Source of the DNA: Syntrophorhabdaceae bacterium
GTDB lineage: Bacteria > Desulfobacterota > Syntrophorhabdia > Syntrophorhabdales > Syntrophorhabdaceae
DNA length: 64,000 nucleotides
Direction of reading: 5' to 3'
NCBI GenBank assembly: GCA_963665295.1
Contig: OY762209.1
Coordinates: 1,408,001-1,472,000 of the forward strand
The notes under the pieces are model-generated. The model was not told the DNA's origin. It did not search any database and was given only the letters and a program-made list of their open reading frames with translations. Both the position numbers and the translations under genes were made by a program. Positions 10,191 through 58,167 of the stretch are shown piece after piece. The first letter of the stretch is position 1. Each line of letters begins with the position of its first letter.

Positions 10191-10360
10191 CGCAAAAGAA
10201 AACCGGGGAAATACAGGCCAAATCCGTAATTTTTCAACCCTATTCCAGGAACGGAAAGGGCAAGGAATCTCATTTTCGGTCCCCCCTTCGTCCTTTTCTC
10301 ATGCGAACCTGAGGGGAGACCATGGCCGTCGCCTATTCATGCCCAGTGGAGGACTAATTA

Positions 10361-12035
10361 GTCTCCATCCGGAAACCCCCATTTTCGAGCAAGCCCCCGG
10401 TCTATTGCCAGGGTGGGCGCTCAGCCGTCCGGTGATTCCGTCATCCCTTTTCGGATTTCACTCCATCGGGCCCGTTTTCCCCAGAGTCAGGGCGTAGCTC
10501 ACCCTTGTCCCCTTGAGAAAATAGTCTTCTCTCATCATGAGGCCATCCTGATGCGGGCGATGACGAGAAGATTGTAGGAGACGATACTGGAGAGCACGTA
10601 CCGGGCAAACCCTTCCCATCCTGTCCACGTCGCCCGGTCAAGGCCGAAGGACCGTTTCAATGTGGAGATGCCTGCTTCAATGCCCGCCCGGAAGTTCCTG
10701 AGCTTCTTGTAGACCCAGGTGCTCTTTGCCATGTCGAGGATGGAGAGCCCCCTCTTTCTGGCGAAGACGGCATCCTTGATATGGTTCTCCTTCGCATAGG
10801 CGAGGTTCTCTTTTGAGGCAAAGCCCCCGTCGGCCGTCACTTGGCGAGGCATCTTCCCGTACCACTCCTTATGCTGCTCAAGGAGGGATTGATACTGGTC
10901 GGTATCAGCGGGGTTGCCCGGGACGATGAGACACCCGATGATCATGGTGGAGCGTCCTCCTGTAAGGAACACCTTATGGCCGTACTCGGTATCCCTCCTC
11001 CCCTTCACGATGATGTCCGTGTGGTCCTCGAAGAAAGAGACGATCTTCTCGGAGGCGGGGACCTTCTCGTTCTTGAAGACTCTCCGGTCGGTCTGGTCGA
11101 TGACCTTCCCGAGTATGCCCACGGCGCGTTCAAGTCTCCGGGCAAGCTCGCGGGCAGCGAAGGTGTCCATGAGATTATCGCCCTCGTAGGGGATGAGTTC
11201 GGTGATCGCCTCTTCGGCATATCCCTTCACGAGATTCGCATAGTGGAGGAGGTCCTTGTAGGCGCTCTTCCGTGTTCTGTCGTTCTTTGCATTGAGGATC
11301 GTCATGAGCTTCTTCTTGGCTACTCTCCTATGGTCACTGTAGGCATACCGGGGCACGGGAGCAAGCTCCTTCCCTTCGGTGAGTAACCGGGTAATGACGC
11401 GGATGCCGTCCACGATGAGCGATGAGTCGGTGGGGTGGTGGATGTTGGTCTCCACCGTGGTGGAGTCTACTCTTACCACGCGGCCGGATTCTATCTTCTC
11501 CTTTACCGCGTAGCGGTTTACTTCCTGAATGATCGCCTCCCAGGTTTCTTCCCGTATCGCCTTTATGTTCTCCTGAAGGACCGATTTGGAGGGGTACTGT
11601 CCCATCTCCAATCTCGCGAAACTGCGGAGTGCGTCGGAGTCTTCCATGTGGAAGGCAAGCTCTTCATACGTCAGTTGGCGGTACTGCTTGAGTATGGCGA
11701 TCCGGAGCACCTGTTCCGCGGTGAGCCCCTCTCTTCCCGTGTCGGTGCGACAGAAGGAGGTCATATCCCCGAAGACCAGATCCAGAAGGCGGGGATTGGC
11801 GTCTATGACCTTTGACATCTCCTGAAGCTCCTTTACAATAGAATGGCGCATCATGGGGGAGAAGAGACCTGTCTGGGGGTTGAATTTCTGGCGCATTCCG
11901 GAATCCTTTCTGAAGGCGTTAGGTAATGATATTGCCTTGTTACAACCATATTGTACCTCAGATGAGGGGCGAAACTCCAGGGGAATGTGGGGATTTGGGC
12001 AAATATTTCATGGGGTTAGGTTTCCGGATGGAGAC
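10361..12035 (-). mobile_element. Complete IS element (ISNCY-type, ISDol1-like size and target duplication)
   Basis: 17-bp terminal inverted repeats GTCTCCATCCGGAAACC / GGTTTCCGGATGGAGAC, flanked on both sides by TAATTA. Single transposase ORF. Confidence 0.85.
10535..11896 (-). CDS. DDE transposase (ISNCY/IS5-like)
   Basis: GREGLTAEQVLR, VRVDSTTVETNIHHPTD, TADGGF, RAGIEAGISTLKR. Confidence 0.9.
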   Translation of the reverse strand: MRQKFNPQTGLFSPMMRHSIVKELQEMSKVIDANPRLLDLVFGDMTSFCRTDTGREGLTAEQVLRIAILKQYRQLTYEELAFHMEDSDALRSFARLEMGQYPSKSVLQENIKAIREETWEAIIQEVNRYAVKEKIESGRVVRVDSTTVETNIHHPTDSSLIVDGIRVITRLLTEGKELAPVPRYAYSDHRRVAKKKLMTILNAKNDRTRKSAYKDLLHYANLVKGYAEEAITELIPYEGDNLMDTFAARELARRLERAVGILGKVIDQTDRRVFKNEKVPASEKIVSFFEDHTDIIVKGRRDTEYGHKVFLTGGRSTMIIGCLIVPGNPADTDQYQSLLEQHKEWYGKMPRQVTADGGFASKENLAYAKENHIKDAVFARKRGLSILDMAKSTWVYKKLRNFRAGIEAGISTLKRSFGLDRATWTGWEGFARYVLSSIVSYNLLVIARIRMAS

Positions 12036-12250
12036 TAATTAAGTTCCTATCGTACCTGATTAGTGAAAAAAAGCGCTTGACAGTATATTCGGTTATATTA
12101 TAAGACAAACATAGACGATTTGTATTGTTATTCACCAATGACGCTTCATCACCGCAAAAGTCTTATTTGTTTTCCTTTAATACAGGTTCGTCCATGACCA
12201 CAGGCATGGACAGCAGACAATGAATGCACAGGACATCATGGAGGGGGGTC

Positions 12251-52810: not shown

Positions 52811-53290
52811 TCAGTTGTTGCCCGGTGTGGAGGGGAAGCCCTTTTTCGATACCTCGAGCCATTCGAGCATGTGGGAGAGCATCTCGATCTGGGCGTCTTC
52901 GAGGATGGAGTCGAACCTCTCCTTCGCGGCCCCGATGAGCATGGCATTGGCCGTGTCGGTGGTGTCGCTTGAAACGAGGATGACGGGAAGGTTCATGCAG
53001 CAGGCGTAGCCGGCCTCGAAGGCGGTGCCCGTGTCGTTGTCGTCCGTCAGGGCCATGAGGGCGTCGCAGTCTTCGAGCAGGTCGAGGCAGGACTTCTTTA
53101 TGGCCTTGCTCATGGTGAGCTTGGTCTCCATGTCGCCCTCCACGTTGGGGGAATAAAGGAAGGGGTCCACGATGGTGATGTTCCTCCCGTGTTCGAGTCG
53201 GGCCAGGCTGCCCGTCAGTTTCTGAAGAAATTCTCTCTTCACGCGTTCCTGCTCACTGGTAAAGCATGGATGTGCAAAATACACGAGCAT
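52811..53290 (-). CDS. Nucleoside 2-deoxyribosyltransferase-like protein
   Basis: VYFAHPCF, DTGTAFEAGYA...PVI, NAML. GGAGGG upstream. Confidence 0.85.
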   Translation of the reverse strand: MLVYFAHPCFTSEQERVKREFLQKLTGSLARLEHGRNITIVDPFLYSPNVEGDMETKLTMSKAIKKSCLDLLEDCDALMALTDDNDTGTAFEAGYACCMNLPVILVSSDTTDTANAMLIGAAKERFDSILEDAQIEMLSHMLEWLEVSKKGFPSTPGNN

Positions 53291-53346
53291 ACGACCCTCC
53301 AACAGTAGTATGGGACATTATAACCCATTTCCGCGAACTTGTCGCC

Positions 53347-53376
53347 GGTCGGCGTGAAGGTCGGCGTGAAGGTCGG
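53347..53376. repeat. 12-bp tandem repeat (2.5 copies)
   Basis: GGTCGGCGTGAA GGTCGGCGTGAA GGTCGG. Confidence 0.8.
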
Positions 53377-53519
53377 GATTGTGCTTGTGAGTCTTGCGTA
53401 CACTTGGACGGATCGCCGCACGGAACGAAAACGCTATATAGGCCGCTCTGCAAAGGGAGGCGTGCTCTGGCGTATGAATATACGCCGACGCCCAGCCTCC
53501 CTTCACAGCCCAACCTATC

Positions 53520-54658
53520 TAGTGTACTGTCTCACTAATAGCTTTCCAATTACCCTTGGCTATGCTATCATAGTGCATGTGGAATCCAGCCAGTACGCTA
53601 GACATGACGGAAGAGCAGAGAAAGACATTGGAAACATGGGTCAAAGCAAAGAAGACTCCCCAAAGGGTGGTTCTACGCTCCCGCATCTGCCTGCTCGCGG
53701 CAGAAGGGATGTCCCATAACGCCATAGCGAAGAGGCTCAATACCTCCCGCCCTACGGTGATATTGTGGGTAGGCCGCTTCAGAGAACAGGGCCCCTCCGG
53801 TTTGTCGGAGGACGCACCCCATGGGCCGAGTTCAAGGCGCCTTAACCCGGAGATAGTGCGCACCATCGTGGAAGCCACGCTCCATACAACTCCCAAAGAT
53901 GCTACTCAGTGGTCCACCCGCACCATGGCAAAGGAGAAGGGCGTGAGCCATGCCACCGTGCAGCGCATCTGGGATGCCCATGGACTACAGCCCCATCGGG
54001 TAGAAACTTTCAAGCTGTCCAGAGACAAGAAGTTCGTGGAGAAACTGACCGATGTGGTGGGCGTCTATCTCAATCCTCCCGACAAAGCGGTGGTACTCTG
54101 TGTGGATGAGAAAAGCCAGGTGCAGGCCCTGGACCGGACCCAGCCGGGATTACCGATGAAGAAGGGGCGCTGCGGCACGATGACCCACGACTACAAAAGG
54201 AACGGCACTACCTGTCTTTTTGCCGCCCTCAATGTTCTGGAAGGAAAAGTCATAGGCTCCTGCTATCCCCGCCACAGAAATACCGAATTTCTTAAGTTCC
54301 TGCGTACCATAGACCGTCAGGTGCCAAAGGGCCTCGATGTCCATATGATTCTCGACAACTACGGAACTCATACCCACCCCAATGTGAAAGCATGGCTCGA
54401 AAAACACCCCCGTTTCGTTCCCCACTTTACACCCACAAGCTCGTCGTGGCTTAACCTGGTGGAGCGCTGGTTCGGGGAGATCACACGAAAGAGAATTCGT
54501 CGCGGCATCTTCAAAAGCGTTCAGGAACTGGTGACCGCCATCGAAGAATATATTCGCTGCAACAACGAAGACCCCAAACCCTTCGTATGGACCAGGAAGG
54601 CCGAGGAGATACTTGAAAAAGTGAATCGCTGTAAAGGCGTTACTGAGACACTACACTA
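53520..54658 (+). mobile_element. IS630-family element (coordinates include both TA copies)
   Basis: Ends cTA-GTGTACTGTCTCACTAA ... TTACTGAGACACTACAC-TAg, CTAG target. Confidence 0.92.
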
Positions 54659-54659
54659 G
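53577..54659 (+). CDS. IS630 transposase (single ORF)
   Basis: LCVDEKSQVQALDR, THDYKRNGTT, LDNYGTH, FTPTSSSWLNLVERWF. Confidence 0.95.
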   Translation: MWNPASTLDMTEEQRKTLETWVKAKKTPQRVVLRSRICLLAAEGMSHNAIAKRLNTSRPTVILWVGRFREQGPSGLSEDAPHGPSSRRLNPEIVRTIVEATLHTTPKDATQWSTRTMAKEKGVSHATVQRIWDAHGLQPHRVETFKLSRDKKFVEKLTDVVGVYLNPPDKAVVLCVDEKSQVQALDRTQPGLPMKKGRCGTMTHDYKRNGTTCLFAALNVLEGKVIGSCYPRHRNTEFLKFLRTIDRQVPKGLDVHMILDNYGTHTHPNVKAWLEKHPRFVPHFTPTSSSWLNLVERWFGEITRKRIRRGIFKSVQELVTAIEEYIRCNNEDPKPFVWTRKAEEILEKVNRCKGVTETLH

Positions 54660-54982
54660 CGTCTCCGCCCCGTGCGACGATCCACTCGACCCGGCAGCAA
54701 TTAATCAAAAGAGCTAATGATGCCGGGAGATTTGCCCCAGGGGAGAGGCAGGCCTACCGGCGTAGGAACAGAGTGTACAAAGGCCCGGCCCAAAAATAGA
54801 ACGCCCCGGGCGCAGGGGAGTACCTCCCCCCCAACAGGCAGGCTGATATCCCCGCTCCAAAGATATGGAAAGGCATATATAGATTACCCCGCCGCAGGCA
54901 GCGGGGCACGAAACCCCGGGGACACCACCATGGGGCCCGCGGCTTGGGTGCAACCCTTCGCTGATCCAACTGGTCGTTATTT

Positions 54983-55170
54983 CCGGCATCGATTGATTAA
55001 AATAAATAAGATGTGCCGGGTGGAGTAGGTGGGGGCATGGAGGGGAAGTTTCAGATGGGCTGCTCTGTGAAGGGGTGTGGCCTGGAGCCGTACTTAATGT
55101 ACGGAGGAAGGCTCGCCCCTTTGCAGAGGGGTCCATATGGAGCTTTCCCTTTATGCCCCCACCTATCCAC
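54983..55170 (+). other. Structured element B (188 nt); candidate ncRNA or ssDNA hairpin element
   Basis: Small CCGGCA..TGCCGG hairpin followed by a ~150-nt rod (55020..55170) paired on the plus strand with many G-U pairs. Confidence 0.6.
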
Positions 55171-55243
55171 TAAAACAGCCTTGCACGCCCCACGCAGCAA
55201 TACCAGGTGCTCGCGCTGCCCGGGGAATATCGGGGGGGGGATA

Positions 55244-56537
55244 GGCAATGTACAATCTCTTGTGTCAAGAAAGAAGATGGGGTACCATTCGATCTTTGCC
55301 GTTTGCACCGCCAAGCACATAGACAAGGAGGAGGTACCCCGAATGAATCAGCATGTAATGGTAAACAATCTATCACAGGCAATGAAAATGGTAAAGGAAA
55401 TGGATGGTTTTTCAGAAGAGCGGTGGACCGATGACTACCGGGAGGTCGGACGCAACGCCATAGGGAATTTCCTCCGGGACCGTATGAAGGAGTCCATAAG
55501 CGATTATCTTGGTCGTGTACCCGAAGGAGCAGACAGAAGGAACGGAAGTTACCCCAGGCACGTGCTGACCGAGATAGGAGATATAGCCCTCTCTATACCC
55601 CGGACGCGGACCTATAACCCGATTCACGTGATTGAAGCCTATGCGAGGAGAAGCAAGGAAGTAGACCGGCTCATCCTCTCCTGCTTCTTGTTGGGTCTCT
55701 CCACCAGGAAGGTAGGAGCAACGCTCCTTACCATTCTCGGGGAGAAGGTGAGCCCCGGTACGGTGAGCAGGGTGGTAAAGACACTCGACGCGGATGTGGC
55801 CGCATTCCACAGGAGACATCTCTCCAATATCTACAAGGCGCTCATCTTGGATGGGGTGGTCCTCTCCAGGAAGACCGGCATGGGGGCCGCAAAGAGACCT
55901 GTCCTCGTAGTCCTGGGCATACGCGAGGACGGCAGGAAAGAGGTCATCGACTTCCGCCTTGCCTCCTCCGAGAGCAGCGCAGAATGGGATGTCTTCCTTC
56001 GTGATCTCTCTGCAAGAGGGCTCACCGGGAAGAATGTGGAGGTAGTCTCGGTAGACGGGGGAAAGGGACTCCTTTCCGTTCTCCGTCATTATTATACCTC
56101 CATCCCCATCCAGCGCTGCTGGGCTCATAAGATACGTAACATCACCGATAAGGTAAAGAGGAAGGATCAGGACGCGGTAAGGGAAGGACTACGAGATATC
56201 TATAATGCCGCCCATATCCGTGAGGCGAGGAAATATGCGGGGCTATGGAAAGAGAAATGGAAAGACACGTACCCTGATGCGGTGACGTGCCTCTTTGCCG
56301 ATATTGATGATCTCTTTACCTGTTTCATGTTTAAGGACCTTGCCTTCCGGAAGAGCATACGCACTACCAACCTCATAGAAAGGAGATTCAAAGAGGTGAA
56401 GAGGAGGACGAGACCTATGGGGGTGTTCAGTGATAAAACGAGCATGGACAGGATTCTCTATGCCATCTTCATGTATGAGAACAGATCGAAGGGGACGTCC
56501 CCCATTTTCTCGCTGACACATAAGTCTTGACATTGCC
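55244..56537 (+). mobile_element. Complete IS256-family element
   Basis: Imperfect terminal IRs GGCAATGT...TGTGTCA / TGACACA...ACATTGCC and a 9-bp target duplication GGGGGGATA on both sides. Confidence 0.92.
55343..56530 (+). CDS. IS256-family transposase
   Basis: RRNGSYPR, GLSTRKV, LILDG, SVDGGKG, QRCWAHKIRN, IRTTNLIER. GGAGGAGG upstream. Confidence 0.95.
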   Translation: MNQHVMVNNLSQAMKMVKEMDGFSEERWTDDYREVGRNAIGNFLRDRMKESISDYLGRVPEGADRRNGSYPRHVLTEIGDIALSIPRTRTYNPIHVIEAYARRSKEVDRLILSCFLLGLSTRKVGATLLTILGEKVSPGTVSRVVKTLDADVAAFHRRHLSNIYKALILDGVVLSRKTGMGAAKRPVLVVLGIREDGRKEVIDFRLASSESSAEWDVFLRDLSARGLTGKNVEVVSVDGGKGLLSVLRHYYTSIPIQRCWAHKIRNITDKVKRKDQDAVREGLRDIYNAAHIREARKYAGLWKEKWKDTYPDAVTCLFADIDDLFTCFMFKDLAFRKSIRTTNLIERRFKEVKRRTRPMGVFSDKTSMDRILYAIFMYENRSKGTSPIFSLTHKS

Positions 56538-56610
56538 GGGGGGATATCGGGTTTGACACGGGAGGGGAATTACGGGTAATTTGTTGTACGAAGGTGTTCA
56601 GGGAGAGAGA

Positions 56611-58167
56611 ATGAGCGAGAGACTTGTCAATGTAGGTGACTGGATACGGCAGTGGAGCGCGATCAGGCCGAATGCCACGGCGATCATCGCGAATGACGTA
56701 CCGTGTTCCTACCGGGAACTGGACCGCCGAATCAACAAGCTGTGCCATGCCCTTATCGGGCTCGGGATTTCAAAGGGCGACCGGGTGGCGGTGTTGCTTC
56801 ACAACTGCCGGGAATACATCGAGATATTCTTCTCCCTTGCCAAACTGGGGGCAATCATGGTTCCCATGAACTGGCGACTCGCCGCGCCGGAGATACGCTT
56901 CATTCTCCGCGACAGCGGCACCAAAGTGGTGATCTTTGAGGGAGAATTCACGGAGGCCGTGAACTCGGTGCGGTCAGGGGAAGCCATCGAATGCTGCATT
57001 CACCTCTCTCCCCACGGTGGGGAAGACGCGGCGCCCTCGTGGGCCAACGGCTACGAGTCCCTCCTTGCGCCCATGAGCGACCATGAGCCGGAACCGGAAG
57101 AGCGGGCCGGGGACACCGACCCTCACATCATCATGTATACTTCCGGGACTACCGGGGTGCCCAAGGGCGCGGTCCTGTCCCACAGGAAGACCTTCTTCAA
57201 CGTGCTCAATTCCGACATGTTCTTCGACCTCACCACCAGGGACCGGATGATCGTGACGCGGCCCATGTTCCATTCGGGAGGACTGATCGTCGATTCCGCG
57301 CCTGTCCTCTACAAAGGAGGGACCATCATCGTGAAACGGCGGTTCCGGCCCATCGAGATCCTGGAGACGGCCCAAAGATACCAGGTCACGCTCATGGAAC
57401 TCCCCGCCACGGTCTATCAATTTATCCTCAACGAGTGCAATCTCGACGAATACGACCTGAGTTCGGTCCGCTGCTGCTTCACGGGCGGCGAACGGGTCCC
57501 GGTTCACCTGCTCCGGTCTCTCGCCGACAAGGGCCTCGTAGTCTCCCAGATTTACGGATTGACCGAGGCCTCCACGATCTTCTGGCTGCCGAGCGAAGAG
57601 GCCCGGGAGAAGATAGGCTCCGTGGGCCATCCTATCTTTCACGGCAGGGTGAAGATCGTGGACGAGGAAGGCGTGCCCGTGAAGCCGGGCGAGAGCGGCG
57701 AGGTGGTGGTCAAGGGCCCCATCGTCATGAGCGGTTACTGGCAGCGACAGGACCTGACGGACGAGGTCGTCAAAGACGGATGGCTCCATACAGGGGACAT
57801 TGCGCGCATGGACGAGGACGGGTTCGTCTACATCATGGACAGGAAGAAGGACATGTACATAAGCGGCGGGGAAAACGTCTATCCTGCGGAGATCGAAAAG
57901 CTTCTCCTCGCCCATCCGAAAGTGATGGACGCCGCGGTGGTGGGTGTGGCGGACGAGAAGTGGGGGGAAGTCGGAAAGGCCTTCGTCGTGTTGAGAGACA
58001 ATGAGGAGGCAAGGGCCGAGGAGATCCTCGCATTTCTCAAGGACAAACTTGCCAGGTATAAGATGCCCAAATATGTGGAATTCACCGACGCCCTCCCCAG
58101 GACCGCATCGGAGAAGATACGAAAGTACCTGTTGAAGAACGGGGCTGACGGCGTGGTTTCTACTTAG
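56611..58167 (+). CDS. Long-chain-fatty-acid--CoA ligase / AMP-dependent synthetase
   Basis: YTSGTTGVPKG, YGLTE, GWLHTGD, DRKKDMYISGGENVYPAEIE, LPRTASEKI. Confidence 0.93.
   Translation: MSERLVNVGDWIRQWSAIRPNATAIIANDVPCSYRELDRRINKLCHALIGLGISKGDRVAVLLHNCREYIEIFFSLAKLGAIMVPMNWRLAAPEIRFILRDSGTKVVIFEGEFTEAVNSVRSGEAIECCIHLSPHGGEDAAPSWANGYESLLAPMSDHEPEPEERAGDTDPHIIMYTSGTTGVPKGAVLSHRKTFFNVLNSDMFFDLTTRDRMIVTRPMFHSGGLIVDSAPVLYKGGTIIVKRRFRPIEILETAQRYQVTLMELPATVYQFILNECNLDEYDLSSVRCCFTGGERVPVHLLRSLADKGLVVSQIYGLTEASTIFWLPSEEAREKIGSVGHPIFHGRVKIVDEEGVPVKPGESGEVVVKGPIVMSGYWQRQDLTDEVVKDGWLHTGDIARMDEDGFVYIMDRKKDMYISGGENVYPAEIEKLLLAHPKVMDAAVVGVADEKWGEVGKAFVVLRDNEEARAEEILAFLKDKLARYKMPKYVEFTDALPRTASEKIRKYLLKNGADGVVST

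Follow-up and report, generated by a model that had tools for sequence, protein, structure and literature searches.

Short palindromic repeats that are scattered between bacterial genes have been described in several lineages, and the closest to the element reported here are the ERIC/IRU sequences and the RPE MITEs of Rickettsia, which, in the accessible part of a review, appear as non-coding repeats of 130-190 nt, with tens of intergenic copies, a long stem-loop and a lineage-patchy distribution, all of which our element has as well (PMC10969869). The same part of that review attributes RNase-dependent effects on host transcripts to ERIC and Correia elements (PMC10969869). A repeat family of G. 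metallireducens is likewise deltaproteobacterial, multicopy and intergenic, and its central palindrome, GRCGTAGCGCTGCTACGCC, is close to the GCGTAC-loop-GTACG apex of our element; in the available portion of the source, this family is known from a BLAST alignment, without a structure model or mobility analysis, and the likeness is one of description (PMC2700814). What moves ERIC/RPE-like repeats, and why their folds stay exact, is a long-open question.

In the window, that is, the whole 64,000-nt stretch of a Syntrophorhabdaceae chromosome that was analysed (contig OY762209.1, positions 1,408,001 to 1,472,000), two hairpin elements lie back to back, and the initial annotation was correct in seeing that an IS630 insertion hides one of them. 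In element B (54980-55171, plus strand), a 5' hairpin of 7 bp with an AT-rich loop (54983-55019) precedes a rod (55020-55170). Element A, on the minus strand, is split. Its 5' part, which contains the 5' hairpin, the linker and the outer left arm (54659-54728), matches an unbroken paralogue at 96.8% over 125 nt, and its 3' part, with the apical stem and the right arm of the rod (53404-53521), matches the paralogue at 98.5% over 130 nt. This paralogue is located at G000:C1:308040-308227, G000 being the window's own genome. The two parts are separated by an IS630-family insertion sequence (53522-54656, plus strand; ORF 53577-54659), which duplicated TA in a CTAG site inside A and is present in about 15 near-full copies in the same genome. 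Element B folds at -131.8 kcal/mol (z -14.2), a value reached by 0 of 200 shuffles, versus -89.4 kcal/mol (z -9.0) on the opposite strand; the paralogue of A folds at -124.2 and its opposite strand at -93.5. The folding that had been proposed for one strand only is thus confirmed. Two irregularities that had been pointed out, a G.A mismatch and a G bulging out near the base of the rod, are seen both in the fold of B and in the family alignment, and the sequence motifs quoted for A and B are present.

On its left side the insert borders on a host gene of the nucleoside 2-deoxyribosyltransferase family (ORF 52811-53302, minus strand; PF05014), which lies downstream of A and is syntenic in the related genomes G001 and G003. 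Between this gene and A is the 3' tail of A (53303-53403, minus strand), which is G-poor and A/C-rich, contains a 12-nt tandem repeat and carries a promoter-like site (GCGACA-17-TATAAT, 53345-53317) that faces the separated host gene and might act as its promoter. The spacer between A and B (54729-54979) is formed at its ends by the 5' leaders of the two elements, and its middle varies in length among three sister pairs, namely the window pair and two close sisters elsewhere in the genome. The 3' tail of B (55172-55243, plus strand), also G-poor, is partly common to the copy at G000:C1:2251955. It is followed by an IS256-family insertion sequence (55244-56537, plus strand; four genome copies, 9-bp target duplication), a later insertion whose ends differ from the MITE ends of relatives, and by an acyl-CoA synthetase-family gene (56581-58167, plus strand). 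Element A with its IS630, the spacer, B, the IS256 element and the acyl-CoA synthetase gene make up a block of about 4.85 kb that is absent from the matching site in G003 and G001, and in G003 the host genes flanking the insert abut directly. The corresponding site of G001 harbours a different rod repeat of about 200 nt (L406:4179-4382). No target site duplication was recognised around the window pair or its sister pairs, and no promoter-like site was found where either element begins, nor a terminator-like site where it ends.

When the window's chromosome, a single contig of 5.5 Mb, was searched with an iterated profile, 26 full-length copies were obtained, comprising 25 unbroken ones and the split A, besides one copy interrupted by an insertion at the apex and nine cut-down or decayed copies. 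The repeat of about 190 bases is a dispersed, non-coding, intergenic, multicopy family. Divergent back-to-back pairs occur at five sites, and two further sites keep the stub of a lost partner. Covariation statistics were obtained from the 25 unbroken copies, whose mean column identity is 71%: 97.4% of cells pair, and 35 of 62 pairs show two-sided changes, which strongly supports the fold of 5' hairpin and rod. The covariation noticed between A and B is real. None of 500 shuffles matched any covariation measure, and slid controls dropped to 39-50% paired. The rod cells comprise 1132 Watson-Crick, 208 G-T, 11 A-C and 24 other combinations. In a model-fitted alignment across genera (60 distinct rows, two of them partial antisense rows), 91.6% of cells are paired and 55 of 62 pairs covary. 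The apical loop varies in length and sequence, and a closing helix between the 5' leader and the 3' trailer is visible in some subtypes. Several traits are RNA-like, including 15% G-U pairs, an invariant tandem UG/GU and a purine-rich apical internal loop. With RNA as well as DNA parameters, it is always the same strand that folds better (25/25 copies); therefore, the folding strand is clear, and the folded molecule may be either RNA or DNA. No family of Rfam 15 reaches its gathering threshold; the best score, 47 bits where 137 are required, belongs to a plant miRNA model, and relaxed thresholds gave nothing real. The initial annotation had likewise recognised no tRNA, SRP, 6S, attC or riboswitch consensus. 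A description of the repeat family was not found in the open-access literature. The family is real and undescribed. From the initial annotation, which had inferred an undescribed non-coding RNA or single-stranded DNA element present as a back-to-back pair, the undescribed, structured and one-strand nature of the element stands, and the pair loses its special status, being one arrangement of a dispersed multicopy repeat with further homologues throughout the chromosome and in the genomes of relatives. A match to a known Rfam or MITE family had been named as contrary evidence; there is no Rfam match and no named MITE family was matched, but the finding that the same core lies in a MITE-marked unit in related genera comes near to this contrary evidence.

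In the window's genome, left and right arms belonging to one stem module have a common history (Spearman 0.77, 0.53 and 0.87), and adjacent modules are barely correlated (0.06-0.35), indicating that nested stem modules were shuffled between copies. In cut-down copies, the 3' rod was lost at short repeats located at its base, as is expected of hairpin slippage. In the 60 nt after the rod, G falls to 12-17%, and these tails contain short tandem repeats and are common to several copies. With the origin near 1.07-1.09 Mb and the terminus near 3.91 Mb, 22/26 single copies and 16 of the 17 full-length singles face the origin (p 5e-4), which makes the folding strand the leading-strand template. None of 29 element loci lies at 2.91-4.89 Mb around the terminus, versus three of about 15 IS630 copies. 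This bias would fit a loss of copies whose hairpin forms on exposed template. The origin-facing bias was not seen in G040, where 6/17 full-length matches face dnaA by manual count, or in a weak test by local skew (22/45). For IS200/IS605, insertion favours the lagging template, the opposite of the bias of our element, according to the accessible part of a preprint (bioRxiv 10.1101/279083). The downstream gene runs in the same direction in only 18/27 cases in the window's genome, which is near the background of about 59%. Genes 5' of copies often look foreign in this genome, and many copies in G001 and G003 are at synteny breaks, an impression recorded without a formal control.

A few individual loci of this genome deserve mention. 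At L027 (G000:C1:616982-617785), three perfect 170-bp tandem repeats precede a full copy, and the repeat unit consists of the upstream region plus the 5' hairpin of the element, stopping at the rod base. At G000:C1:969966-972348 and 4981280-4985962, the 70-115 bp preceding a copy are repeated 2-4.5 kb upstream, and these repeats bracket restriction-modification or DUF262-type genes in a cassette-like manner. At L051:1501-1718, the rod has turned into a near-perfect palindrome in a phage-like gene context, possibly by template-switch perfection. A second rod family with the same apical motif is present in six copies (L398-L403), two of which, at 3.89 and 5.05 Mb, are identical.

The model R1 matches 40/96 genomes of the order, patchily by genus, and 5/151 genomes in the phylum, three of these weakly. 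A wider model, R2, matches 37/151 phylum genomes, mostly over the rod part and often many times each. The phylum-wide sister rods share CAGATG...GAGGCGTAC-loop-GTACG...GCAGATGG, differ in their outer ends and are often preceded by a hairpin. A pattern scan of 185,579 genomes returned 62 loci, almost all of them under the titles Syntrophorhabdus, Syntrophorhabdaceae/-ales, Syntrophaceae, Syntrophus or uncultured delta proteobacterium; they include one Streptomyces locus without a model match and one Chitinivibrionia-labelled locus with a model match. The pattern scan gave 0 matches in viral contigs, BLAST gave no match to the element in plasmids and phages, and two patterns gave none in metagenome contigs, where the second is a pattern that recovers 22 of the family's own copies and the first was unchecked against them. 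Even within one genus the positions of the element differ. Three copies of G001/G003 correspond to empty sites in the window's genome, with gaps of 373, 872 and about 2600 bp versus 50, 62 and 128 bp, at a divergence too high for reading the junctions.

Marks of a MITE were found in the relatives. Units of about 370 nt with 16-bp inverted ends enclose the same core in genera g5 and g3, and the end motif GRTATTGTMAAAAGTT has 64, 42, 19, 8 and 5 matches in five g3/g5 genomes, compared with 0, 1, 1, 0 and 3 for the control. Unit sizes range from 143 bp (no core) through 238-250 bp (part deleted) up to 980-1280 bp. A target duplication of at least 7/8 was obtained for 5 of the 19 automatically called units, several of which had mis-called ends, against a mean of 0.27 and a maximum of 3 in shuffles; manual reading gave an 8/8 duplication for L096 and for the third L374 unit. 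The g3/g5 end matches 15/16 bases of the right end of an IS256-family element (NF033543) in G005, and the IS256 family typically makes target duplications of 8-9 bp. The units are oriented with respect to genes: 8/19 units are followed immediately at their 3' end by the start of a gene, and 0/19 at their 5' end, which would make the G-U-rich strand the transcribed one there, and MITE units in related genera often sit just 5' of a ribosome-binding site. To our knowledge, such oriented placing is not known for IS256. In g5, the tail is a fixed part of the MITE. Sister rod Y of G007 has an end that agrees at 21/22 positions with that of an ISNCY-family element in the window's genome, and G064 has an empty site for it with a single TAATTA. 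With IS256-type ends on the core and ISNCY-type ends on the sister rod, one kind of core is found between the ends of at least two transposase families. The ISNCY-family element is also present in the window (10360-12040; ORF 10535-11896, minus strand; six copies), and its end matches MITE Y of G007. In the MITE units of 1-1.3 kb (L316:56-1035, L310, L325, L329), the sense frame is open for 311-403 codons despite indels, and homologues of this long frame of g3 units include fusions annotated as formate dehydrogenase accessory protein. As a recognisable protein the frame was rejected, since no Pfam match was obtained and its homologues are of hypothetical type only.

Comparable ends were not seen around the copies in the window's genome, where no inverted repeat occurs at a fixed distance within -250/+200 of 25 copies. 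Copies of G001 and of family f3 also have no inverted ends, and only one or two copies of G003 show a different one. Among the multicopy elements listed for the window's genome, no insertion sequence ends resemble the rod feet. The TTGAC motifs seen downstream in this genome were rejected as remnants of ends, because flanking similarity is lacking.

The initial annotation had asked whether other copies lie beside a reverse transcriptase (RT), HUH transposase or recombinase gene, and no mobility gene recurs beside 69 loci from relatives. Element presence was compared with the profiles of RT, FGDD RT, Y1, Y2, IS256 as a whole and the matching IS256 subtype, and none of these tracks with it. Y1/RAYT genes are in 76/96 genomes and absent from G020, Y2/IS91 genes are in 15/96 and absent from G000, and RT genes are in 44/96 and absent from G001 and G003, two genomes with 17 and 19 element matches. 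The matching IS256 subtype, in 15/96 genomes, was not found in G000, G007 or G020, and IS256 of any kind was not found in G007, G020 or G063, absences that come from draft genomes, which lose IS copies. No core lies beside IS256 at the ten IS256 loci scanned, and reading of ORF starts next to 30 end-motif loci revealed no recognisable transposase. A Y1 gene or fragment is near only two copies in the window's genome and 1/69 loci in relatives; the Y1 genes of the window's genome are long, TIR-flanked types that are not flanked by the element. Four such long transposase genes (TIRYT-type, L021-L024) were seen, two of which share an upstream end motif. A XerC/D-like gene pair, considered as a partner, is near 2/69 loci at different distances and was set aside. 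A stand-alone 551-aa RT with an FGDD motif is encoded at L108:943-2598 (minus strand; G000:C1:2650044-2651699) behind a conserved paired-end leader of about 120 nt that is different from the element, and has close orthologues in five other genomes of the order; all six are element-positive, which is 6/40 positives, and no element lies beside this RT. A group II intron-type RT gene with a C-terminus that looks disrupted (L107:1258-2517, minus strand) is 2.6 kb upstream of the copy at 689280. The element is not directly upstream of an RT gene in the manner of a retron msr-msd or a G2L4 long direct repeat. In DNA contigs of sequencing runs, the only joints are those explained by paralogues.

These observations can be read in several ways. 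In one account, mobility or recombination belongs to the core, which would act, in attC- or REP-like fashion, as a folded site in single-stranded DNA for a host enzyme or an enzyme acting in trans, and the transposon ends would have been captured later. The conservation of the core while the ends change among lineages agrees with it, as do the foreign-looking genes 5' of copies and the synteny breaks in G001 and G003. Arm-wise shared module history is what crossovers on a folded stem would give, but nested gene-conversion tracts combined with selection yield the same pattern; similarly, the leading-strand-template bias and the empty terminus region speak for a single-stranded site, but the bias is missing in G040 and in the local-skew test. 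Considering also that no neighbour gene recurs, that Y1/RAYT, Y2/IS91 and RT genes do not track with the element, and that the rod feet have no integron-type boxes, we regard this account as rather unlikely.

That the copies are independent small RNA genes acting in trans, which is the RNA reading of the initial annotation, would be consistent with the G-U content, the tandem UG/GU, the purine-rich internal loop and the covariation across genera in the fitted alignment. We do not favour a free-standing RNA gene family, because A and B have no promoter-like or terminator-like sites and the apical loop is variable; its positions also vary within a genus, rods are often deleted and no Rfam family matches, making this explanation improbable. 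Lower still is the chance that a reverse transcriptase copied the element in the manner of a SINE-like retroposon and left the A/C-rich tail as a priming or tailing scar. The drop in G after the rod, the tandem repeats in the tails and the FGDD RT in element-positive genomes would suit such a retroposon, as would two palindromic repeats of about 140 bp that precede G2L4 RT genes in the accessible part of a preprint (bioRxiv 10.1101/2022.03.14.484287). Against it, the FGDD RT is restricted to a minority of the positive genomes and has its own leader and no adjoining element, G001 and G003 carry many copies with no RT found, and the tails are common to copies and a fixed MITE part in g5; there is no 5'-truncated series, and cut-down copies lose the 3' rod.

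The explanation that we favour, with a confidence slightly better than even, is that A and B are MITE-type passenger copies mobilised by DDE transposases on borrowed ends, with a fold likely selected in the host transcript. A DDE transposase acting in trans on these ends would copy the unit, a step suggested by the ends and duplications of the relatives, and the copies of the window's genome would descend from MITE-type units whose recognisable ends were lost. The copies may then swap nested stem modules by recombination and lose rods by slippage deletion, processes to which the module correlations and the cut-down copies point. The fold would be kept because the transcript carrying the element is affected, and selection at the transcript level is proposed because of the G-U content and the oriented placing before ribosome-binding sites. 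An RNA rod with G-U pairs and fixed internal loops could be handled by host RNases, and its DNA would avoid being a perfect, unstable palindrome. The patchy spread and the filled and empty sites between relatives count for the MITE reading. Against a simple MITE count the unique copies, about 70% identical and yet all about 97% paired, and the origin-facing bias, both of which it leaves unexplained. Also counting against the favoured explanation are the copies without inverted ends in the window's genome, G001 and f3, the genomes in which the matching IS256 subtype was not found, the end-motif loci with no recognised transposase, the core-free IS256 loci among those scanned and the near-background share of downstream genes that run the same way in the window's genome. 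More tentatively, and with a probability that we place well below even, the conserved apex may be a module found across the Desulfobacterota that is swapped as a cassette between unrelated transposon ends, shuffles its stem segments and is read as folded RNA or single-stranded DNA by a host factor. If true, a host factor reading the folded module would explain the origin-facing bias and the oriented landing before ribosome-binding sites.

Compared with known systems, the element has partial likenesses in several directions. With REP/REPIN sequences and their RAYT or TIRYT it shares dispersed intergenic hairpins and back-to-back dimers, and B-type copies carry a REP-like GTGG...CCAC double foot; in the portions of the sources available, REPs are 20-40 nt long and flank their own RAYT gene, whereas the rod of our element has 140 nt and the Y1 genes are unflanked (PMC3733652, bioRxiv 10.1101/279083). 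The long direct repeats of G2L4 RTs are similar in being palindromic pairs of about 140 bp with a spacer of about 240 bp, but in the accessible part of the preprint they are direct and precede an RT gene, unlike our elements, which are divergent pairs or singles with no adjoining RT (bioRxiv 10.1101/2022.03.14.484287). In the alignments and neighbour lists that were read, integron attC features (RYYYAAC / GTTRRRY boxes, cassette arrays, a nearby IntI) do not occur, and for an IS200/IS605 or IS91 relationship the window's genome has no Y2 transposase. The IS256 family is the likely driver in genera g3 and g5, where the 15/16 inverted end and the 8-bp duplication are alike; the autonomous IS256 elements scanned have no core, and the window's copies have no such ends.

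The nearest relatives in form are still ERIC and RPE, the apical stem of ERIC and RPE-1 being similar to that of the element. We do not file the element under ERIC/RPE or the G. metallireducens family, because these were likened by description alone and the window's copies fail the inverted-end test. The occurrence of one core between the ends of different IS families suggests that what persists is the fold rather than the ends. By sitting immediately in front of ribosome-binding sites, the units could adjust the expression of many genes in syntrophic bacteria; if the element is only a MITE with a tolerated hairpin, describing the family still helps annotation and cautions that repeats of this kind mimic non-coding RNA genes. 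As the family offers a deep covariation set, sites both filled and empty, a candidate transposase whose ends match and a copy in a cultured host, the question of what moves such repeats and keeps their folds becomes testable. Relative to ERIC and RPE, our element adds a 5' hairpin, ends that are lineage-specific (IS256-type, ISNCY-type or none found) and the shuffling of nested stem modules.
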